Both the position numbers and the translations under genes were made by a program. A stretch of DNA of 42,339 bases, taken from the NCBI GenBank assembly GCA_045589735.1, contig JAZNPQ010000009.1, positions 1-42,339 on the forward strand. Reading direction: 5' to 3'. This document shows positions 1 through 42,077 of this stretch, piece after piece; position 1 is the first letter of the stretch; the number at the start of each line of letters is the position of its first letter. Source of the DNA: Eubacteriales bacterium. GTDB lineage: Bacteria; Bacillota; Clostridia; Oscillospirales; CAG-272. The notes under the pieces are model-generated. The model saw only the letters and a list, made by a program, of their open reading frames with translations, did no database searches and had not been told where the DNA came from.

Positions 1-280
1 GAATGGCAACACACGAGCCGCGACTGCGGGAGCGAGAAGGCAGGGCGCCGATGCTGACTTCACTTTTTTGAAAGCCTCCGACCCTGCCGCGCAAAGCTCT
101 GTATAGAAATTCAACGGTTGCGACCGAGCAACCGTTGAAAGATAACCAAAAACCTAAGACATACCCCTTGTTTGAAGTTTTTTGAAGTTTCTTAAGGAAC
201 TTTTTGCAAAAAGTTCCTTAAGTGGGGTGTGGGGTGAAACCCCACATAAAGAATCAACCCACCGACAAATCAAAATTTGA
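1..280. mobile_element. MITE-like hairpin-array element, copy A (left part runs off the window)
   Basis: Right terminus caccgacaaatcaaaatttga (260-280) matches the termini of copies B and D. The interior shares modules with B and C: gagccgcgactgcg at 14-27, hairpin caacggttgc/gcaaccgttg at 112-137, a perfect 32-bp palindrome at 191-222 and a GGGG/CCCC hairpin. Confidence 0.7.
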
Positions 281-291
281 AGGGAAATTAC

Positions 292-981: not shown

Positions 982-1693
982 TCGAATTTTGATTTATCTG
1001 TGAGATTATGTGGGGCTCTGCCCCATACCCCGCCTAAGAAACTTTTTGCAAAAAGTTTCTTAGGAATCTTCAAAAAACTTCAAACAAGGGATATATTTTA
1101 ATTGTTTGTTTATCTTTCAACGGTTGCTCGAGCGCAACCGTTGAATTTTTGTACGGTTATTTGCGCGTCGAGGTCGAAAGTCTTACTTAAAGTAAAGTAC
1201 GGTTGCGGCGCCTCTGACTATCGGATATGCGCTTCGCGCAAATCCTGTTGAGTTTGCGCAAGGCGCAAACATCTCTCTGCCGCAGTCGCGGCTCGTGTGT
1301 TACCGTTCAGACACACTCACGACGCGACATTACGAAAATATTATTCAATCTAATTTATTGATTTTTGTTTTATTTTACTCTTTAATGTCGCGCAGTGAGA
1401 ACGCCGCAATGGCGAGCGTTTGAGCCCGCGACTGCGTTAGCGACGAGGAGTGCGCGTCGGTTGAAGATGTTGCTTTAAGGTGAATGCGCGCACTCCGTGA
1501 TAAGCTACGTGCTATCCCTCGCCGACCGCGTCCGAGCGGTCGCTGAAAGGTGAATAAATACCTTGAATAAACCATTTGATTTTGAAAGTTTTTGAAGATT
1601 CTTAAGGAACTTTTTTCCAAAAAGTTCCTTAAGTGGGGCGTGGGGCAACGCCCCACTTAAAAAACGAAACTCACCTATAAATCCCAATTTGTT
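982..1693. mobile_element. MITE-like hairpin-array element, copy B (complete, 712 bp)
   Basis: Termini are tcgaattttgatttatctgtg (982-1002) and cacctataaatcccaatttgtt (1672-1693). Read inward they fit CAAATTnnGATTTnnnGGTG. Two roughly 330-bp quasi-inverted arms surround an AT-rich centre. No credible ORF. Confidence 0.75.
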
Positions 1694-2312: not shown

Positions 2313-4127
2313 TTAAATCATAGAAAGTATCGCTTTTTTTACGTCACCGTACATATAAAGCGAGCCGAGTGCGATTATCGGTCTGCCTGTCTTATTTGCC
2401 CGTTTGAGTGCAGCTTCGACAGATTTTTTTATATCATCGTTTCCTTCTGCGTATATTCCACATTTTTTAAACTCTTCCGCATAAGAGACTGCGTCAAGCG
2501 AACGGGGATTATCGGGTTTCAAGGTAAACGCCGACTCGGCAATGACAGACAACTCACGCGCCATATCGGCGTAGTCCTTATCCTTCATAACACCGCTGAG
2601 CAGAATGACATTTTGATCTCCGAAAAGCTTTTTCACGCAATCGACCGCCGCCGCAATTCCCTCTGGATTATGCGAGCCGTCGATTATCACGAGCGGAGAA
2701 TCCGAAAGCTTTTCGAATCTTCCCTTCCATTCGGCGTTTCGAAGGCCCGTGACAAGTGCGTTTTCGTCGATATCAAGTCCTCTCTTACGCAAAATATCCA
2801 CAGCGCATATAACGTTCGCGGCATTGTGAGGCTGATAAGTTCCGAGTAATTTTATAGAATATTCTTTTCCGCACAGCTTAAAGACTGTTCCGCAAAGGTC
2901 AGTCTTTATTATTTCAAGCTCACTCTGCGGTGTTACAAAAAATTCCGAGCCTTTTTCCAGCGCGACCGTTTTTATTACCTCTGCGGCAGTATCATCCGTT
3001 CCGCCGTACAGTACAGGTGCGCCGTTTTTGATTATTCCCGCCTTTTCTGCGGCAATTTCGGCAACCGTATTTCCGAGAAACGCCGTATGGTCAAGTGAAA
3101 TCCCTGTTATTACCGACATTATCGGTTCTTTTATTATATTCGTTGCGTCAAGTCTGCCTCCCATACCGACCTCAAGCACAACGGGATCACAGGAATTACG
3201 CTCAAACGCCACCATCGCGACCGCAGTTATAAGCTCAAATTCGGTTGGCGCGTCCTCCATTTTATCGGCAAATTCACGCACATACGACGTAATCTCAGAC
3301 AGTTCAGTGTCTGATATGGGAGTTCCGTTTATTGTAATTCTTTCGTTGAACCGTTCAATATAAGGTGAGGTGTAAAGTCCTGTTTTATATCCCGCCTCAC
3401 GTAAAACCGAATCGCACATAGAGCAGAACGAGCCCTTGCCGTTCGTACCCGCGACGTGTATAAATCTAAGTCTATCCTGAGGGTCACCGAGCAGATGCAA
3501 CAGCTCGGTGATACGCTCAAGTCCCGGGCGGCTTCCCGTCCAGCTTACCTTATGTATATATGAAAGTGTTTCCTTGTAATTCATACGTTTGGAATTCCAG
3601 CCGAGGATCTTTCTGCAGCTTCGGTTTTTATATAAAAGGCATATAAGCACTATCTCGATAGGTGCAACGGCAAATAAATAAAGCGGTATTCTCCAAAGGA
3701 TCGACCAGTGATAAAAAGTAAAAAGACCTACTGATTTTATTATCACAGAGCCGAAAAGATGAGCAAATATACCCGAAACTATTATCTGCTTGTATCCGTT
3801 TTCTTTTATTATGAATTTTGACACGACACCCGGAATTACGCCCACAATAGCAGCACCAAACGTGACTATGAGGTTAGGCGGATAGACCTGAGGAGATAGC
3901 AGATAGCTTATAAGATCCGACGCAGCACCTATCATAGCTCCTCCGACAGGTCCTAAGATCATACCCGAAATTATTATCGGCAGATGCTCAAAGGTCACTC
4001 TGAACAGTCCCGCACCGAAATTTAAATAGCTTTTACAAAAAATACCGATAACGACGCTCATAGACGTAAGCATTGCGGCAAGCGTCAGCATTTTGATGCT
4101 TTTAAAGACAAACGAATGTTTTTTCAT
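2313..4127 (-). CDS. folC: Fusion of a folate ECF S component (FolT-like, N-terminal ~180 aa) with folylpolyglutamate/dihydrofolate synthase (FolC)
   Basis: One uninterrupted 604-aa ORF. The N-terminus is a membrane domain (RVTFEHLPIIISGMILGPVGGAMIGAASD). From MNYKETLSYI onward it is typical FolC (HVAGTNGKGS P-loop). The internal ATG has no good RBS. Confidence 0.8.
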   Translation of the reverse strand: MKKHSFVFKSIKMLTLAAMLTSMSVVIGIFCKSYLNFGAGLFRVTFEHLPIIISGMILGPVGGAMIGAASDLISYLLSPQVYPPNLIVTFGAAIVGVIPGVVSKFIIKENGYKQIIVSGIFAHLFGSVIIKSVGLFTFYHWSILWRIPLYLFAVAPIEIVLICLLYKNRSCRKILGWNSKRMNYKETLSYIHKVSWTGSRPGLERITELLHLLGDPQDRLRFIHVAGTNGKGSFCSMCDSVLREAGYKTGLYTSPYIERFNERITINGTPISDTELSEITSYVREFADKMEDAPTEFELITAVAMVAFERNSCDPVVLEVGMGGRLDATNIIKEPIMSVITGISLDHTAFLGNTVAEIAAEKAGIIKNGAPVLYGGTDDTAAEVIKTVALEKGSEFFVTPQSELEIIKTDLCGTVFKLCGKEYSIKLLGTYQPHNAANVICAVDILRKRGLDIDENALVTGLRNAEWKGRFEKLSDSPLVIIDGSHNPEGIAAAVDCVKKLFGDQNVILLSGVMKDKDYADMARELSVIAESAFTLKPDNPRSLDAVSYAEEFKKCGIYAEGNDDIKKSVEAALKRANKTGRPIIALGSLYMYGDVKKAILSMI

Positions 4128-4215: not shown

Positions 4216-4310
4216 ACAAAGCGGGATGCAGGCAACCGACCGCGCTACGCTTCGTCCGAATGACAACTCCCCGTCCACTCGTCACTTAACGCCGACTGCC
4301 TTACTCTTTT
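4216..4310 (-). promoter_or_regulatory. THF-I riboswitch
   Basis: The minus strand reads AGAGTAAGGCAGTCGGCGTTAAGTGACGAGTGGACGGGGAGTTGTCATTCGGACGAAGCGTAGCGCGGTCGGTTGCCTGCATCCCGCTTTG. This closely parallels the E. siraeum THF aptamer (GAGUAG..GCGUUAAGUG..GGGAUGUCGUCAC..ACGAAGCG..AGCGCGGU..UGCAUCCGCUC). A TATAAT box lies just upstream. An anti-SD segment (tacctcctttttt) lies downstream, opposite the RBS. Confidence 0.85.
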
Positions 4311-8958: not shown

Positions 8959-9694
8959 CAAAAATTAATGCCGTCGGTGGGATTGATATGTGGGGCTCTG
9001 CCCCATCCCCCGCCAAAGAAACTTTTTGCAAAAAGTTTCTTTGGAATCTTCAAAAAACTTTAAACAAGGGTTAATTTAAGGTTTTTATTTATCTTTCAAA
9101 GCTTGACCGTGTCAAGCTTTGAGGGTTTATACGGCACTTTACGCGGCAGTGGCCGCCGGATATGCGCTTCGCGCAAATCCTGGAGAGTTTGCGCAAAGCG
9201 CAAACTCTCAGGTCTTACTAAAAGTGAAGTCTGCATCGGCGCCCTGCCTTCTCGCTCCCGCAGTCGCGGCTCAAACGCACGCCATTGCGGCGTTCTCACT
9301 GCGCGACACGAAAGAACAATGTAAATTTTAAAATTTTTGAACAGATAATATCGCTATTATGTCGCGTCGTGAGTGTGTCCGTATGGCAACACACGAGCCG
9401 CGACTGCGATAGCGACAAGTCGGGGTGCCGTGGTGAACCTCACTTTTAGCAAGACCATCAGCCCCGACGTGCTAAATACCGTGCTATCCCTCACCTACCG
9501 CGACCGAGCGGTCGGTGAAAGCTGTATAAATACATAGGATAAATCATTTATTTTTGAAAGTTTTTGAAGATTATTGGGGCGAGATGTTTGCGCTCTGCGC
9601 AAACTCTCCAGGATTTGCGCGAAGCGCATATCCGATTCTTATGTGGGTGTGGGCAACGCCCACGAATCAACCGATCGTTAAATCCCAATTTGTT
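8959..9694. mobile_element. MITE-like hairpin-array element, copy C (736 bp, left terminus degenerate)
   Basis: The right terminus ttaaatcccaatttgtt ends at 9694. The left end is caaaaattaatgccgtcggtg. Outer arms are collinear with copy B, but the core (9259-9408) is inverted relative to B. Confidence 0.7.
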
Positions 9695-11903: not shown

Positions 11904-12069
11904 AAGGAGAACTAGCGTGAAAGTTTGTCATGCTGTTGAGAAAAGTTCACGGATCACGCTACCAAATTTAAACTAAAAATGGGGCCCAACCCATTTTTGT
12001 TTGCAAAGCAAACACGCTTAAATTTTATTATTTTTTGTGCCGCCGCATGGCGGCGGAATGGAGATTACA
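11904..12069 (+). repeat. 166-bp structured intergenic repeat, copy 1
   Basis: Homologous along its whole length to the reverse complement of 19231-19397. Runs from aaggaga-tagcgtgaaag to gtgccgccgcatggcggcggaatggagattaca. Contains 3-4 hairpins. Confidence 0.8.
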
Positions 12070-12543
12070 ATGAAACCCGAAAGATACAACGAATTTACAC
12101 TGCTCATTGAAGGAACACATAAGCTCATACAAAAAATAAAGCTCGACCGTTCAAAGGAATTCGGAATAAAGGGCGTTCACGTATTCTGGCTCTGCCGTCT
12201 GCTCGCACAGCCCGAGGGAATGACATCTGCAGAGCTTGCGGCGCAGAGAATGATAGACCGTTCTCTCGTTTCGCGTGAGATAGACGAGCTTCTTGACAAG
12301 GGCTACATACAGGTTGACAAAAAAGCGGTTGGAAAGAGACGAAGCTACAACAGCATTATAACCCTCACACCCGAAGGGATCAAGGTTGCAAAGAAAATAT
12401 CGGGAATGGCTATGGAGATACAGACCGAAGCCAACAAAGGCATACGTGAATCCGAGCTTGTTTCCTTCTACCGCACCCTGACAACGATATACAATAACCT
12501 TTACGACTATTCTGAGCAGTACGAGGAAGAGGTAAACGCATAA
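12070..12543 (+). CDS. MarR family transcriptional regulator
   Basis: Winged-helix region (MTSAELAAQRMIDRSLVSREIDELLDKGYI). Start placed at MKPERY, with GGAG 6 nt upstream. The track ORF starts at a GTG inside a hairpin. Confidence 0.75.
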   Translation: MKPERYNEFTLLIEGTHKLIQKIKLDRSKEFGIKGVHVFWLCRLLAQPEGMTSAELAAQRMIDRSLVSREIDELLDKGYIQVDKKAVGKRRSYNSIITLTPEGIKVAKKISGMAMEIQTEANKGIRESELVSFYRTLTTIYNNLYDYSEQYEEEVNA

Positions 12544-16016: not shown

Positions 16017-16226
16017 ATAAAAAAGTTATAAAATTCGTTATAAAATCCGTCAAATACGTTATTGATTTTTCGGATATTTTATGGTAGAATAAGCTTACAA
16101 AACCATTAAATGCCGTAGGCGGCCGATCACTTACCGAGATTTGTGTGTCCTTTATATGTTTTCTTGGGTTCTCATGAGTACAAAAGAATCGCCGCCAAAC
16201 CGTGCAAATATATTGAGGTGAAGCAA

Positions 16227-17084
16227 ATGGCAGAAACAAGAAAAATAAGAATTGTAGCAGATTCGTCAGCCGACGTGCTTTCTTTAAACGGAATGGACTA
16301 CAGCGTCGCTCCGCTTAAAATAATAAGCTCCGATCAGGAATTTACTGACGATGCCTCGCTTGACATTGAATCAATGGTAAACTATTTTGATAGCTACAAA
16401 GGCAAATCAAAGACCTCCTGCCCGAACGTTTCCGACTGGATCGACGCCTTTGGAGACGCCGATGACGTTATCTGCGTTACTATAACGAGTGCCCTTTCGG
16501 GAAGCTATAATTCGGCTTGCAACGCAAAGCAGATATACGAATCCGAGCATGAGGGCAGACGCGTTTGTATTATAGATTCGCTTTCCGCGGGTCCGGAGCT
16601 TCGCTTGCTTATAGAAAAGCTCGGAGAATACGTAAAAAAAGGTCTTGATTACGAGGAAATCTCTGCCAAAGCAAAAAGATATCTCGGTCAGACAGGACTT
16701 ATCTTTATGCTCAAATCAATGAAAAACCTTGCAAATAACGGCAGAGTATCTAAGGCGAGCGCAAGGATAGCGGGATTCCTCGGAGTTCACGTTATCGGAA
16801 AGGCAAGCGACCACGGCACACTTGAACCGACAGACAAATGTCTTGGCGAGGAAAATGCGCTCAAAAAGCTGGTTTCAAGACTCAGCGAGCTTGGTTTTTC
16901 GGGTGGAAAGGTCAGAATATCGCACAGCCTTAACGAGCGCGCCGCAATGCTTCTCGAAAAGCTTATATTCGAAAAATTTTCGTCCGCTCAAATAGAGATA
17001 TATAAATGCCGCGGGCTTTGCAGCTTCTATGCAGAAAAAGGCGGGATGCTCATAGGCTTTGAAAAAAGCACTGTGTTAGCTTGA
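16227..17084 (+). CDS. DegV family fatty-acid-binding protein
   Basis: Starts MAETRKIRIVADSSADV, a DegV-type N-terminus. RBS gaggtg. Confidence 0.75.
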   Translation: MAETRKIRIVADSSADVLSLNGMDYSVAPLKIISSDQEFTDDASLDIESMVNYFDSYKGKSKTSCPNVSDWIDAFGDADDVICVTITSALSGSYNSACNAKQIYESEHEGRRVCIIDSLSAGPELRLLIEKLGEYVKKGLDYEEISAKAKRYLGQTGLIFMLKSMKNLANNGRVSKASARIAGFLGVHVIGKASDHGTLEPTDKCLGEENALKKLVSRLSELGFSGGKVRISHSLNERAAMLLEKLIFEKFSSAQIEIYKCRGLCSFYAEKGGMLIGFEKSTVLA

Positions 17085-17153
17085 TGTTTTACAAATAAAT
17101 TTAAATTTTAAAATATTTTTGCCACCTCTGTAGTGGAGAAATGGAGATTGATT

Positions 17154-18068
17154 ATGAAACTTTCGTTCGGTTCAGCTTTTCAACAAGCAGGAGAAAAACA
17201 CTCTCACCTTGAGCTTCTCAAGATAGCCAAGGAAATAGGCTTTGGATGTTATGACCTCGACCTCGGTCTTGCGGGAAGTATGACAGGTGAAGACAGAGAT
17301 TCCAATGCTGAGACTTGGAAAAATTTGTTTGAGGAGGCAGGGGTTTCGGTGACTCAAACTCACGCGCCAAAAAAATCGTTTGAGATCGTAACGGGATGTC
17401 TCTTTTTCTGCCAAAAGGCAGGCTTCCCAAACGTAATTGTCCACCCTATTGCCACCCCTAATAATACTCGCGACGAGTTCTGGGAAAAAAACATAACACG
17501 AATAAAATCTTTTATTCCGTACGTTGAAGAAACGGGTGTCGAGATACTCGTTGAAAATATCGGTCAGTATACAGACCCGTATTTCTTCTGGTCAGGCAAG
17601 GATCTGCGCGCTTTTCTTGACGAGATAGATCATCCGCTTATAAACGCTTGTTGGGATATAGGTCACGCCAACCACTTCTACTATATGCACGTCGGCGGAA
17701 GCCAGTACAATTCCATAATCACTCTCGGCGACAAACTCAAAGCGATCCATGCTCACGACAATATAGGATACTTCACGCACTACACGCAGGGGGTCATTGA
17801 TATGCATATGATGCCCTATGCGACAGGCGGTTGCTCCGTAAGCTGGGATGCTGTTCTGCAAGGTCTTAAGGATATAAACTATAAAGGCACGTTCAATTTT
17901 GAAACTCCCGGTGTATTCACATCAAAGAGGGCGGTAGATTTCGTTTATAACGGTGAGGTCGTAGACAGACTTAAGAAGCCTTCCTTTGAGGTTTGGAAGG
18001 CAAGCACGCAGCTTCTTCACGCAATAGGTAAATCTATGCTTGAAGAGTATGATATGTTTGAGGAATAA
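17154..18068 (+). CDS. Sugar phosphate isomerase/epimerase-like TIM-barrel protein (paralog 1)
   Basis: WDIGHANH and HAHDN motifs. Roughly two-thirds identical by eye to the next gene. Confidence 0.7.
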   Translation: MKLSFGSAFQQAGEKHSHLELLKIAKEIGFGCYDLDLGLAGSMTGEDRDSNAETWKNLFEEAGVSVTQTHAPKKSFEIVTGCLFFCQKAGFPNVIVHPIATPNNTRDEFWEKNITRIKSFIPYVEETGVEILVENIGQYTDPYFFWSGKDLRAFLDEIDHPLINACWDIGHANHFYYMHVGGSQYNSIITLGDKLKAIHAHDNIGYFTHYTQGVIDMHMMPYATGGCSVSWDAVLQGLKDINYKGTFNFETPGVFTSKRAVDFVYNGEVVDRLKKPSFEVWKASTQLLHAIGKSMLEEYDMFEE

Positions 18069-18101
18069 AGTAGTTTCAAAAAATAAAAAAGGAGATCGCT
18101 T

Positions 18102-19025
18102 ATGAAGCTTTCTTTAGGTTCGGCTTTTCAGCAGGCAGGAGAAAAGCACACACCGCTTGAGCTTTTGAAGCTTTGCTATGAAATCGGTTTCAGAGGCTAC
18201 GACCTCAGCATCTCTGCAAATATGGCAGCAGATGAGGATCGGAATGCTAAGGCGTCATATTGGAAAAGTTTGTTTGAAGAATCGGGGCTTGAAGTTACAC
18301 AGACTCACGCACCGTTCAAAAACAGTGAACCTATGTTTGACGCGGTCAGCGGTACTTTGTATTTTTGTGAAAAGGCAGGCTTTAAAAATACCGTTATTCA
18401 CCCTGTTGGATACGACGGAAACTCACGCGACGAATTTTTTGAAAACAATCTAAAATACGTACGCTCTCTTATCCCTCACGTTGAGGCGACCGGAACCGAG
18501 CTTCTCGTTGAAAATATCGGTCAGTATACAGACCCGTATTTCTTCTGGTCGGCCAAGGATATGCGTGAATTTCTTGATGAGGTCAACCATCCGCTTGTTA
18601 ACGCTTGTTGGGATATAGGTCACGCAAACCATTTCTACTATATGCACGTCGGCGGAAGTCCGTACGATTCGATAGTCACGCTCGGAGACAAACTTAAAGC
18701 AGTCCATGCGCATGACAACGTCGGATATTTCACCCACCACAAGCAGATAACCATCGATATGCACATGATGCCCTATGCCTCAGGCTTCTGCTCTGTTAAC
18801 TGGGATGCCGTTATGCAAGGGCTTAAGGACATAAACTACAAGGGTACGTTCAATTTCGAGACCGGTGGAGTATCATCTGTAAAGAAAAGACCTGAATTTG
18901 TATATGACGGAGAGGTGGTTCACACTTTGGAAACACCGTCGTTTGAGGTCTGGAGAGACGGCACACGTCTGCTTCACTCAATAGGTAAATCTATGCTTGA
19001 AGCATACGGTATGTACGAAGAATAA
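18102..19025 (+). CDS. Sugar phosphate isomerase/epimerase-like TIM-barrel protein (paralog 2)
   Basis: Tandem paralog of 17154-18068. Long identical blocks such as LVENIGQYTDPYFFWS and ACWDIGHANHFYYMHVGGS. Confidence 0.7.
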   Translation: MKLSLGSAFQQAGEKHTPLELLKLCYEIGFRGYDLSISANMAADEDRNAKASYWKSLFEESGLEVTQTHAPFKNSEPMFDAVSGTLYFCEKAGFKNTVIHPVGYDGNSRDEFFENNLKYVRSLIPHVEATGTELLVENIGQYTDPYFFWSAKDMREFLDEVNHPLVNACWDIGHANHFYYMHVGGSPYDSIVTLGDKLKAVHAHDNVGYFTHHKQITIDMHMMPYASGFCSVNWDAVMQGLKDINYKGTFNFETGGVSSVKKRPEFVYDGEVVHTLETPSFEVWRDGTRLLHSIGKSMLEAYGMYEE

Positions 19026-19065: not shown

Positions 19066-19230
19066 TTATTTTTTATCTTTCTTTTTCTTTGTTTTAAGTT
19101 GTCTCAATACCGAAAAATTTGCTATTACGTAGGTCGCCATTATAATGATTCCTATGATCAGAAATACGCCAAGCAGACCTATTCCCATATATTTGAGATT
19201 TTCAATAAAATTATAAGGTTCGAATATCAT
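19066..19230 (-). CDS. OadG-like small membrane subunit of a Na+-translocating decarboxylase
   Basis: 54 aa: MIFEPYNFIENLKYMGIGLLGVFLIIGIIIMATYVI. One TM helix and a basic tail. Downstream of oadB. Start placed at the ATG after the repeat-borne GGAG. Confidence 0.55.
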   Translation of the reverse strand: MIFEPYNFIENLKYMGIGLLGVFLIIGIIIMATYVIANFSVLRQLKTKKKKDKK

Positions 19231-19397
19231 AATAATCTCCATTCCGCCGCCATAGCGGCGGCACAACAAAATAATAAAATTCAAATGCGTTCGCTTTGCG
19301 AACAAAAATGGGTTCGGGTCCCATTTTTAATTTGAATTTGGTAGCGTGACAAGTGAATTTCACACACAGTATGATAATCTTTCACGCTAATCTCCTT
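19231..19397 (-). repeat. 166-bp structured intergenic repeat, copy 2
   Basis: Its reverse complement aligns with 11904-12069. It has the same polarity relative to the flanking genes. Confidence 0.8.
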
Positions 19398-27244: not shown

Positions 27245-27388
27245 ACAATCCGAGCCACAAAACCAAACCGCGATTATAGCAAACTCATACCGTCAGGTGA
27301 CTAAACGGTTCACCCCGTGTCGAGTTTTTTCTTCTGCCGTTAGTATAGCATACTATCAAGAATTAGTCAAGCGCCTTCTCTCAACACT

Positions 27389-27422
27389 CAAAATTTGCAT
27401 CGCAGAAGTCAAAGAAAACGCC
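27389..27422 (+). repeat. 34-nt island motif, copy 1
   Basis: caaaatttgcatcgcagaagtcaaagaaaacgcc. It recurs at 28741-28774 and, more diverged, at 33269-33300. Confidence 0.75.
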
Positions 27423-27514
27423 GAGAGAAAAAACAATCTCTACAAGTGTTAACTGTGAGCGATTAAAAATCCCTCATTTTAGAAATAATATTGAGGGAAT
27501 ATTCCCTCAAACCG

Positions 27515-28618: not shown

Positions 28619-28740
28619 TAAAATGAAATTGGGGAACAGCGTATAACGACTATATTGCAAATGTTCCCCCAATGCATATTTTAGGATAGTTCAAAATTGT
28701 GATTATGCATATTTTCGGAAGGCAACCGTCAATCCATACG

Positions 28741-28774
28741 CAAAATTTGCTTCGCAGAAGTCAAAGAAAACGCC
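28741..28774 (+). repeat. 34-nt island motif, copy 2
   Basis: caaaatttgcttcgcagaagtcaaagaaaacgcc. Confidence 0.75.
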
Positions 28775-28865
28775 ACGTGAAAAAAGCCCAAATTTATTTT
28801 CGAAAAAGTGCTGGACTTCCTCTCTCTTCTGTGGTATGTTGTTGTGCTAACAGGAGGTGCAACCT

Positions 28866-32835: not shown

Positions 32836-33192
32836 ATGGAAAACTATATCATCATCGGAATGATTGCCGTCATCGTAGTTATTGCTGTTATTTCAAGCAT
32901 CAAGCACTTCAAGGGCGAGGGCGGTTGCTGTGGCGGTGGCAGCTACAAGCCGAAGCGTAAGAAGCTCTCGGGCATAAAATACACGAAAAAATTCAAGGTC
33001 GGCGGTATGCACTGCGAGCATTGTAAGAATAGGGTTGAAGAAGCCGTTAACGACATCAAAGGTGTTGCAGGCATAGTCGATCTCAAAAAAGGAGAACTGA
33101 CCGTGTCCTATGCCGAGGACGTTGACGATAAAATCATAAAGGCAAAGATCGAAAGAGCCGGATATACGGTTACAAGATTAATAAATCAATAA
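32836..33192 (+). CDS. Membrane-anchored heavy-metal-associated (HMA) domain protein
   Basis: N-terminal TM helix, a GGCCGGG segment, then an HMA fold with GMHCEHC. Confidence 0.75.
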   Translation: MENYIIIGMIAVIVVIAVISSIKHFKGEGGCCGGGSYKPKRKKLSGIKYTKKFKVGGMHCEHCKNRVEEAVNDIKGVAGIVDLKKGELTVSYAEDVDDKIIKAKIERAGYTVTRLINQ

Positions 33193-33268
33193 TTGCATCG
33201 CTGTAACCAAAGAAAATGCCCAACGAAAAAAGCTGAAATCGAAGGAGGTCTGTCCTACGGTCAGCCCT

Positions 33269-33300
33269 CAAAATTTGCATCGCAGTAGGCAAAGAAAAGG
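33269..33300 (+). repeat. 34-nt island motif, copy 3 (diverged)
   Basis: caaaatttgcatcgcagtaggcaaagaaaagg. Confidence 0.6.
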
Positions 33301-33326
33301 GCTCTGAGAAACACTTCTCAGAGCCA
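33299..33326 (-). terminator. Terminator after the island-borne tRNA-Pro
   Basis: Minus strand: ggctctgagaa-gtgt-ttctcagagcc followed by cttttc. Confidence 0.65.
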
Positions 33327-33329
33327 AAA

Positions 33330-33406
<77 letters not shown>

Positions 33407-33457: not shown

Positions 33458-33560
33458 GAGGAATTGATGATTTTTCGACATTCGGGAGAGCCGAAAAAGT
33501 CAGTGTTTTCAAGGGCTTTCGGCACTTTCCGAAAAATCTGCGCCGAGAACGGTGATTGAG

Positions 33561-33599
33561 TCCCGAACCAAGCGCTCTACCAAGCTGAGCCACACCCCG
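33561..33599 (-). pseudogene. 5' half of a split tRNA-Pro(CGG), from the acceptor stem to the anticodon loop
   Basis: The minus strand reads CGGGGTGTGGCTCAGCTTGGTAGAGCGCTTGGTTCGGGA, then non-tRNA sequence. It shares the 9-nt GTTCGGGAC with the 3' half at 27062-27107. Confidence 0.8.
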
Positions 33600-33614
33600 A
33601 ATTGATACCATAGT

Positions 33615-33678: not shown

Positions 33679-33942
33679 CTTCAAGTATTGCTTCGCAAAA
33701 CTTGACAAAGTTACTTCGTAACTTTTGGGGTTCAAAACCTATCGTCCACCAACACGCAAAAAGCCCCCTCTCTTTTGAGAGGGAGCTTTTTGGTGCCGGA
33801 GACGGTGTTTCTTCAAGTATTGCTTCGCAAAACTTGACAAAGTTACTTCGTAACTTTTGGGGTTCAAAACCTATCGTCCACCAACACGCAAAAAGCCCCC
33901 TCTCTTTTGAGAGGGAGCTTTTTGGTGCCGGAGACGGGTTTC
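33679..33942. repeat. Tandem duplication, 2 x 132 bp, each unit ending in the 3'-terminal ~20 nt of tRNA-Leu
   Basis: The unit cttcaagtattgcttcgcaaaac...aaaaagccccctctcttttgagagggagctttttggtgccggagacgg occurs at 33679 and at 33811. Copy 2 continues into the intact tRNA-Leu. Confidence 0.85.
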
Positions 33943-34011
33943 GAACCCGTACGATATTTTCATATCACGGGATTTTAAGTCCCGGGCGTCTGCCTGTTCC
34001 GCCACTCCGGC
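33923..34011 (-). tRNA. tRNA-Leu (anticodon TAA), type II with a long variable arm, CCA encoded
   Basis: GCCGGAGTGGCGGAACAGGCAGACGCCCGGGACTTAAAATCCCGTGATATGAAAATATCGTACGGGTTCGAAACCCGTCTCCGGCACCA. Anticodon loop CTTAAAA. Confidence 0.85.
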
Positions 34012-41638: not shown

Positions 41639-42077
41639 ACAAATTGGGATTTAAGGGTGCGATTATACACAGAACAACGGTAGGGCGGGGGCTTGCTCCC
41701 GCCGAAACGAACAATTAAGACAAATAATATTTCTATAGACCGAATAAACCTTAAAAATTGTAGGGACAGGCGTCCTCGACTGTCCGCTTCTTTGATATAC
41801 CGCAAATAATATTTTTTGTAATTAAAAATAATTGTTTTTTTATAGAAATAAAATCAAACCAAAGGCATCGCCACGGACAGTCGAGGAGGCCTGTCCCTAC
41901 AGATTTATTTTAATTGTTTGTTTTATTACAGAAATTTTATTTGTCTTAACCGCTCATTTTCGGGCGACCAATGGTCGCCCGAAAGAAAAACGCATAAATA
42001 AACGGGAGACACAATGTTCGCCCCTACAGTGTAATTAAAATAATCCATAAATAACACACCGACAAATCAAAATTTGA
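41639..42077. mobile_element. MITE-like element, copy D (439 bp, same termini, different interior, opposite orientation to B and C)
   Basis: Termini are acaaattgggatttaagggtg (41639-41659) and caccgacaaatcaaaatttga (42057-42077). The interior has its own inverted arms (tgtagggacaggcgtcctcgactgtccg / cggacagtcgaggaggcctgtccctaca) and GC hairpins. Confidence 0.7.

Follow-up and report, generated by a model that had tools for sequence, protein, structure and literature searches.

What are the four stretches of non-coding DNA that lie dispersed along contig JAZNPQ010000009.1 of a Eubacteriales bacterium, and how do such stretches multiply? This contig, analysed here in its entire NCBI length of 42,339 bp (the window), carries about one of these elements per 10 kb, and a preliminary description had called them non-coding repeats resembling miniature inverted-repeat transposable elements (MITEs) with a single terminus consensus. 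We find that they belong to a real, widespread and apparently undescribed family whose members carry two related but distinct ends around a mosaic of hairpins. At about even confidence, we read them as non-autonomous elements similar to REPINs or bacterial interspersed mosaic elements (BIMEs), both built from repetitive extragenic palindromes (REPs), that are mobilised in trans on single-stranded DNA and have added, sequence-specific ends resembling terminal inverted repeats (TIRs).

Four dispersed copies and two kinds of end

With up to three mismatches allowed, the pattern CAAATTKKGATTTNNNGGTG matches the window six times (260-279, 1672-1691, 9673-9692 and 42057-42076 on the minus strand; 983-1002 and 41640-41659 on the plus strand), compared to a mean of 0.62 in dinucleotide-preserving shuffles, of which none of 100 reached six. 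The six matches belong to four elements, of which three are complete and one is truncated where the contig begins, and the four dispersed copies first proposed are therefore well founded:

1-281, minus strand: copy 1, an element cut by the contig start, with end A at 260-281, where the minus strand reads TTCAAATTTTGATTTGTCGGTG
982-1692, plus strand: copy 2, with a degenerate end A at 982-1002 (TCGAATTTTGATTTATCTGTG), end B at 1672-1692 and a hairpin-mosaic interior
1269-1426 (158 bp), no strand assigned: the central segment of copy 2, whose counterpart in copy 3 (9268-9420) lies in the opposite orientation relative to the shared arms
8959-9693, plus strand: copy 3, with a badly degenerate left end at 8959-8979 and end B, with 2 mismatches, at 9673-9693
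41639-42077, minus strand: copy 4, with end B at 41639-41659, end A at 42057-42077 and an interior unrelated to those of copies 1-3

Copy 1 is incomplete because the window is a whole contig, so that an assembly break cuts it; its end A lies 12 nt past the spoIIR stop codon, and its segment 57-249 is 80% complementary to 1006-1198 of copy 2 in our table of repeats within the window. Conserved ends had been claimed for every copy. Three complete pairs of ends bear this out, but the left end of copy 2 has two substitutions and that of copy 3 (CAAAAATTAATGCCGTCGGTG) has degenerated so far that it is recognised only because the interior next to it is homologous to copy 2 (direct match D7 of the repeat table, where D6 and D8 are further direct matches between copies 2 and 3). 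Copies 1-3 have interior modules in common (80-94% over 50-190 nt), and copy 4 has its ends alone in common with them. Between copies 2 and 3 the central segment gives inverted matches (I3 and I6), flanked on both sides by the direct matches D6, D7 and D8.

As the preliminary description had it, no copy contains a credible open reading frame (ORF), the sole ORF of at least 80 aa being a GTG-started 93-aa frame at 1375..1656 on the minus strand, and all four copies are intergenic, among ordinary neighbours (spoIIR, a QueT transporter, an AMP-binding enzyme and a MecA-like protein). Their strictly intergenic positions, often beside gene ends and terminators, would suit structural elements that serve the host, are maintained by selection and are kept alike by recombination rather than transposition, with a possible role as terminators, insulators, hairpins that stabilise mRNA, or binding sites for nucleoid proteins or gyrase. 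In addition, terminator-like hairpins are present within copies 1 and 2, some positions are kept across species, and E. coli REPs and BIMEs have secondary structural roles of this type (PMC2817692, PMC3333891). Such a role is nevertheless improbable as the full explanation: selection acts on no common structure, given that the copies have unrelated interiors; their orientation toward neighbouring genes is inconsistent; and the recent bursts of identical copies at unrelated loci require a copying mechanism. Service to the host is compatible with the elements being mobile.

The single consensus gives way to two end types, A (TTCAAATTTTGATTTRTCGGTG) and B (YAAATTG-NNN-TTTRTCGGKG, YAAATTGGGATTTANNGGTG), and every complete copy in the window has one of each, both facing inward. 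Logos of 158 distinct A ends and 117 distinct B ends from the wider family show that A and B, when inverted, are identical at 15-17 of 20 positions, and that information falls to zero right outside TTCAAATT and YAAATTG, as it does about 24 nt toward the interior. The combination of A with B accounts for 62 of the 68 convergent end pairs within 900 bp. Position 7 is invariably T in A and G in B; end A is nearly invariant across metagenome-assembled genomes (MAGs), and end B varies in a lineage-specific way at positions 7-10:

End B, positions 7-10, GATG: JAZLBM01 and JBGVFO01
End B, positions 7-10, GGGA: JAGAPH01, JAZQYP01 and the window
End B, positions 7-10, GCGR: others

Within an element, changes at the variable positions of A are not matched by changes in B. 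The ends thus look conserved as sequence, that is, as putative protein-binding sites, rather than as a stem, and this lack of covariation speaks against a required A/B stem.

Boundaries, spread and movement

To place the window's copies within a family, we scanned one genome per species with the pattern WCAAATTKKGATTTRWNGGTG and obtained at least 115 stretches, all but five of them from about 27 MAGs labelled Eubacteriales, Clostridia or Oscillospiraceae, mostly from animal gut or rumen. The five in other phyla have no hairpin interiors and so look like chance. The exact A end occurs in 93 further stretches of metagenome assemblies and has 0 matches in viral contigs; 29 single viral matches to a degenerate terminus pattern lie inside coding sequence, consistent with chance. 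BLAST of copies 2 and 4 against 72,556 plasmids returned nothing, and look-ups with the window's flanking proteins found no second representative of its species in the searched collections. As far as sampled, the family is confined to a clade of uncultured gut and rumen Clostridia. Related contigs or stretches collected from MAGs or metagenome assemblies are given L-numbers below.

The high copy number inferred from the window alone is borne out in these relatives. Specifically, for 84 of 265 ends the nearest contig end is less than 200 nt away, most often 119-122 nt in k=141 assemblies, and because contig breaks pile up inside the elements their copy number must be high; several MAGs also have an identical 90-nt interior beside many different flanks. 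Nor did our searches match the termini to any named family. A full-text literature search with the terminus sequence gave only unrelated primer matches, searches for REPs or MITEs in these taxa turned up nothing relevant within the library searched, and Rfam 15, at the gathering threshold or by E-value, has no match on the window elements or 15 related loci, the sub-threshold matches being generic long hairpins.

How sharply do the ends bound the elements? MAG JAZLBM01 contains four copies, each about 173 bp long, that are near-identical exactly from TTCAAATT to CAATTTA and have wholly unrelated flanks, and across the family the sequence outside the ends is unique at each locus, so the termini do mark the boundary of homology. 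Element length is 102-501 bp among the collected loci and 439-735 bp for the complete copies of the window. Unoccupied TTCAAATTT sites occur only at about chance level, which shows that the TTCAAATTT stretch belongs to the element and eliminates it as a pre-existing target site. A more distant relative, with 69% identity in SpoIIR, has the same interior modules around spoIIR but no recognisable ends; modules and ends are thus separable. A separate case is an isolated A-like end at L052:1741-1765, TTCAAATTTTGATTTGGCGGTG, which forms the last three codons and stop (TTC AAA TTT TGA) of a 305-aa gene and has no B end or hairpin interior downstream.

Target-site duplications, one expected mark of a MITE, are lacking. 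None was found in 61 complete elements (offsets -4 to +4, lengths 2-5), where the only signal was the element's own TT, nor at the four near-identical JAZLBM01 copies; this argues against a cut-and-paste DDE transposase. The autonomous partner that the preliminary description proposed to look for did not appear either: in about 1.1 Mb around some 350 ends, among the matches listed, no transposase-carrying element has the same ends. Clustering of 854 ORFs from all loci yielded no recurring transposase and no associated recombinase gene, the largest cluster being ABC-transporter ATPases, and no orphan end leads into a transposase. Candidates for gene-carrying elements did not stand: larger end pairs enclose housekeeping LepA or MurI and are two separate elements, and the 475-aa ORF beside an 'orphan' A end in L052 is a sulfatase-like lipoprotein gene. 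Of the label MITE-like, then, the dispersed, non-coding character and the inverted-repeat-like ends stand, and duplication and partner do not. With neither found, a single-strand (HUH) or site-specific enzyme acting in trans is the likelier engine.

The main rival to a REPIN/BIME-like origin is a classical MITE with an unsampled partner, which we rank below it and regard as doubtful. A and B would be the TIRs of a DDE-type insertion sequence, a full-length copy elsewhere would mobilise the short copies, and the hairpins would be passengers. Ends that are inverted, alike at most positions and conserved as sequence without covariation are what transposase-binding sites look like, and the lineage-specific tetranucleotide of end B suggests co-evolution with a lineage-specific protein. 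Moreover, only about 1% of each MAG was sampled, in a genome scan of at least 115 stretches. Weighed against this are the missing duplications, the lack of any ORF-bearing element among the roughly 350 ends, and the consistent asymmetry of the ends.

Comparisons between orthologous loci reveal a different kind of change. At the site 3' of spoIIR, four related genomes have an A end 12-16 nt past the stop codon, and the interiors are unrelated: the window has one hairpin set, L145 another, and L146-148 only a 40-bp 'mini' form of A plus B. L145 also has an element at the same position and orientation as copy 2. This site can be read as an old insertion with a rapidly remodelled interior, which the visibly decaying A ends of L145 and L146 favour, or as cassette exchange at resident sites. 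In the latter case A and B would be two non-identical recombinase sites, perhaps folded like integron attC, at which hairpin cassettes swap and the ends stay. The constant distance from the spoIIR stop codon, the unrelated interiors and the mini form agree with it, as do the elements downstream of rplL in L055 and L094, which have orientation but not interior in common; the T versus G at position 7 would keep A and B from recombining with each other. Yet unrelated loci carry near-identical whole units, both ends included, which means that ends and interior move together. In addition, the ends do not have the internal symmetry of tyrosine- or serine-recombinase core sites, the clustering associated no recombinase gene with them, and the decay in L145 and L146 is as expected of old neutral copies. 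We therefore consider resident recombination sites unlikely.

Interiors change in still other ways. The metagenome contigs L149 and L154 encode an identical SpoIIR protein and have 99.8% identical flanks, and between them a 156-bp segment lying between two CCTTCCCCnnGGGGAAGG hairpins (L149:3305-3460 versus L154:98-253) is inverted with 94.9% reverse identity; the flip is very recent. Two genomes that are 95% identical differ in an 89-bp hairpin module, which abuts the outer edge of an A end exactly and is present in only one of them; tandem arrays of elements have a spacing of 2-3 nt, and in L216 a new or nested A end is joined directly 3' of a REP. Element orientation is the same in all three orthologous comparisons, and inversions were seen only for internal sub-segments.

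Interior hairpins and a candidate enzyme

Each element is an imperfect palindrome over its full length, with an interior that is a mosaic of interchangeable GC-rich hairpins and that differs between subfamilies, even inside one genome. As single-stranded DNA, copy 2 is predicted to fold end to end at -170 kcal/mol (z = -16.7) and copy 4 at -90.5 kcal/mol (z = -10.8). End A (TTCAAATTTTGATTTRTCGGTG.GTT) stands at the start and the inverted end B at the finish; in the commonest layout, A is followed by a 15-35-nt spacer, GTAGGG-hairpin-CCG, a centre of 0-57 nt, CGG-hairpin-CCCTAC, a spacer and B. A REP is an imperfect palindrome of 20-40 nt with a conserved 5' GTAG, or more broadly GT[AG]G, foot (PMC3333891, PMC6006769), and a convergent pair of REPs with a linker makes up a REPIN or BIME-1 (PMC2817692, PMC3337134). 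The commonest layout is thus a REP doublet, in REPIN or BIME-1 arrangement, within TIR-like ends.

The convergent GTAGGG...CCCTAC pair occurs in 28 of 62 complete elements. In 20 short elements with the pair (157-214 bp) the order is GTAG hairpin, centre and inverted hairpin, and the distance from the A end to the start of GTAGGG is 39-58 nt. Elements are about twelve-fold enriched in GTAGGG sites, and a perfect stem of at least 6 bp is present at 142 of 354 distinct sites, versus 10 of 354 after shuffling. The commonest class of module is GTAGGG..GGCGTCCTCGAC..CC, in which the loop is conserved and stem changes are compensatory; the module at 41760-41786 of the window is an example. Copies 1-3 have GTGG-footed GC hairpins that fit a REP only loosely, and copy 4 has four REP-like modules:

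41680-41704, plus strand: REP-like module GTAGGGCGGGGGCTTGCTCCCGCCG, a 5' GTAG foot followed by a GC-rich hairpin; also in L071, L085, L091 and L104
41760-41786, plus strand: REP-like module GTAGGGACAGGCGTCCTCGACTGTCCG, shared without change by the water-deer MAG RGIG8650; the REP within RAYT genes (see below) is related to it
41874-41900, minus strand: the inverted REP partner of 41760-41786, 91% complementary to it (repeat match I17)
42003-42027, minus strand: inverted REP-like module, whose minus strand is GTAGGGGCGAACATTGTGTCTCCCG

Very strong predicted structure could also signal genes for structured non-coding RNAs, or invertible promoter switches (invertons), which in the gut have inverted repeats around 100-700 bp of intergenic DNA, as here; the internal segments found inverted would agree with the latter. 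We consider both very unlikely, since no Rfam family reaches threshold on the window elements or the 15 related loci, the interiors are not conserved between copies, a palindromic interior changes little by flipping, and orientation was the same in the three orthologous comparisons.

Other structured sequences were seen in the interiors. A two-hairpin module near A ends (L038, L053, L068, L082, L085, L113, L116 and others) consists of AGCC-TTCCC..GGGAA-GG, a second GC hairpin, and GGATGAGG or TGAGGGAG. It shows compensatory stem changes between copies and matches no Rfam family, and its 3' tail duplicates the 3' arm of the first hairpin, so that alternative pairing is possible. A hammerhead-like CTGATGAG in double-hairpin modules was rejected by eye, as the motif is not conserved and has no GAAA core. 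At L149:4690-4790 and 3480-3600, short tandem repeats of AATGCACAGTGCAC / AATGCAGAATGCAGAG type form the centres of hairpin clusters flanking spoIIR.

REPs have a known enzyme, the REP-associated tyrosine transposase (RAYT), of the Y1/HUH type. A tblastn search with an E. coli RAYT sequence as the query found a 174-aa homologue in L143, an element-rich MAG. Its protein matches the NCBIfam model REP_Tyr_transpos with E = 3e-19 and 69 bits, just below the 80-bit cutoff, and has no Pfam match at 0.01. Contig L115 opens with a second, partial RAYT, the contig having been broken at the internal repeat of this gene. The protein family numbers 5016 at E <= 1e-10, some of them named RayT or carrying PF01797; the best 120 matches are 57-80% identical to the L143 protein, two are named RayT by their source, and the few source-named matches come from Clostridia or Ruminococcaceae MAGs. 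In a well-sampled case, RAYT sits among ordinary genes on 23 contigs, mostly in the same gene neighbourhood. A conserved neighbour of RAYT as the end-binding protein was dismissed, the neighbours not being homologous. As to position, one well-sampled species has its RAYT two genes from spoIIR (L159:2501-4476); in the window, spoIIR is at the contig edge between two elements, and a RAYT just beyond the contig start is conceivable.

Every RAYT homologue inspected has an inverted REP pair inside its coding sequence (genes at L143:3239-3763, L159 2501-3016, L165 542-1120 and L173 227-745). The forward copy, GTAGGGGGCGACGTCCTCGACGCCCCG, encodes VGGDVLDAP, its reverse complement 190-250 nt downstream encodes GASRTSPPT, and the pair brackets the HUH motif. 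The VGGDVLDAP peptide is repeated in tandem 2-5 times in P0122, P0124, P0139 and P0154, and in L173 the cognate REP pair is also present 60 nt upstream of RAYT. Certain RAYTs that belong to a different subclass have been noted to 'carry a REP sequence insertion' (PMC6006769), and RAYT group 1 has been reported from Clostridia, without associated REP families (10.1101/119735).

These observations have mechanistic implications. Palindromy over the whole length, the hairpin modules, the GTAG pairs and the RAYT of related MAGs together point to a REPIN/BIME type rather than a DDE-derived MITE. The unit multiplies within genomes exactly end to end, without target-site duplication or a transposase of its own, and its engine would most likely be an enzyme of single-stranded DNA that works in trans on the folded hairpins. 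One candidate alone came to light, the conserved single-copy RAYT of these bacteria, whose mobilising role we infer. E. coli TnpA-REP is a GTAG-hairpin-binding enzyme that cuts single-stranded DNA at C|T, both within the inverted REP and within linkers, and recombines the sites that it cuts, an activity proposed to explain BIME diversification and the strain-variable number of BIMEs (PMC3333891). Cleavage and rejoining beside hairpins would explain the swapping of modules, the closely spaced arrays, the nested junctions and the local inversions.

Several observations count against this REPIN/BIME-like reading. Known RAYT properties do not explain the strictly conserved ends of 22 nt (22-24 bp), no A or B end lies beside any of the RAYT genes examined, and the variable positions of the two ends, as noted, do not covary. 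The RAYT evidence comes from two element-bearing related MAGs, L143 and (partial) L115, and not from the window's own genome. A canonical GTAG hairpin is absent from about half of the complete elements; by a strict stem criterion it is absent at five of seven window ends, including all those of copies 1 and 3, and present at the B ends of copy 2 (with a GTGG foot) and copy 4. BLAST with joined flanks recovered no clean empty site or insertion polymorphism, and neither L034 versus L094 nor the region upstream of spoIIR could be aligned cleanly as empty sites. Orientation relative to the coding strand (40:55, p = 0.15) has no significant bias, unlike that of IS200/IS605, which follows the replication strand.

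The ends may instead define an independent carrier element, into the centre of which REPs and other hairpins were inserted. It is also possible, though only tentatively proposed, that A and B are recognised and cut by a single-strand DNA recombination system (RAYT plus a partner, or a new enzyme) that inserts, swaps and flips hairpin cassettes, with RAYT wired in through its own REP pair, for example for self-regulation or self-targeted rearrangement.

Comparison with known systems shows where the family is alike and where it departs. Like the REPINs and BIME-1 of Proteobacteria, its elements are non-coding, intergenic, high in copy number, clustered and variable between loci; about half of the complete ones contain two inverted 5'-GTAG hairpins with a linker, and the elements fold as a long hairpin over the whole unit, without target-site duplication or their own transposase, and a single-copy RAYT homologue is present in the host (here, in related MAGs). 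In contrast to those systems, the REPs are internal, within two conserved asymmetric TIR-like ends of 22-24 bp that are not found beside RAYT, other hairpin modules replace GTAG REPs in about half of the elements, a REP pair lies inside the RAYT coding sequence and not only beside it, and the hosts are Clostridia.

The Correia elements of Neisseria, the RUP elements of pneumococci and ERIC are likewise short, non-coding and intergenic, with TIRs of about 20-26 bp, and form hairpins when transcribed; Correia elements also resemble the present family in having two end variants. The present family differs from all three in that it makes no TA or other duplication, has interiors unrelated between subfamilies, constantly pairs one A with one B, and has no sequence similarity to them. 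Integron attC sites are imperfect palindromes of variable length and sequence in which the outer parts alone are conserved, with an obligatory mismatch bubble in the folded stem, as in the present elements; these are much longer, though, and have no gene-cassette arrangement, no integrase nearby and no covariation in support of a stem. Palindrome-associated elements derived from IS200/IS605, and TIRYTs (Y1 transposases with terminal inverted repeats; PMC6006769), also make no duplication, are rich in hairpins, have asymmetric ends and live in hosts with a Y1/HUH enzyme, and a single-strand mechanism is probable here too. Unlike IS200/IS605, the family has no strand bias and no conserved target tetranucleotide outside the left end (no fixed tetra- or pentanucleotide appears there, with no information outside TTCAAATT). 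The TIRYT repeat consensus, GGGG[AT][CG]A[CG] (PMC6006769), is unrelated to the present ends, and unlike TIRYTs the RAYT genes are not bounded by A and B.

Other features of the window, and what the family means

Several further features of the window lie apart from the four elements:

4217-4310, minus strand: tetrahydrofolate (THF) riboswitch (71 bits), upstream of a 604-aa fusion of an energy-coupling factor (ECF) transporter S component and a Mur-ligase/FolC-like domain at 2313-4127
11943-12081 and 19219-19360: hairpin-containing inverted repeats of about 140 bp, 80-86% complementary and without A or B ends, around a 7.2-kb block whose contents include three tandem paralogous ORFs of about 310 aa (16143-19025)
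27374-27433, 28726-28785, 33172-33231 and 33254-33313: a 60-nt direct motif present four times at 67-83% identity, with the core CAAAATTTGCATCGCAGAAGTCAAAGAAAACGCC, which may be a shared regulatory or leader sequence
33333-33406, minus strand: tRNA, with a 42-nt partial copy of the same tRNA at 33560-33601
33679-33805 and 33811-33937: an exact 127-nt repeat with a 132-bp period, which includes the end of a second tRNA (33926-34011)

The tRNA-adjacent repeats between 33333 and 34011 may be scars of an integrating element.

The family matters first for how these genomes are read. Its repeats fragment metagenome assemblies of a large group of uncultured gut and rumen Clostridia, with many contigs ending 120 nt inside an element, and give rise to spurious small ORFs; assembly, binning and annotation would all benefit if the repeats were recognised. 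It also extends REP/RAYT-type repeats, which have been well studied only in Proteobacteria, to Clostridia, and adds two unusual features, namely asymmetric conserved ends that enclose a REP doublet and a RAYT coding sequence that contains the cognate REP pair. Sharply bounded, with one 22-nt end strictly conserved and with a candidate enzyme that is small and conserved, it offers a test system for how REPINs and BIMEs are cut, moved and diversified. If A and B are indeed the sites of a recombination system, the family would be a Clostridial counterpart of REP/BIME with a sequence-specific layer not seen in Proteobacteria.

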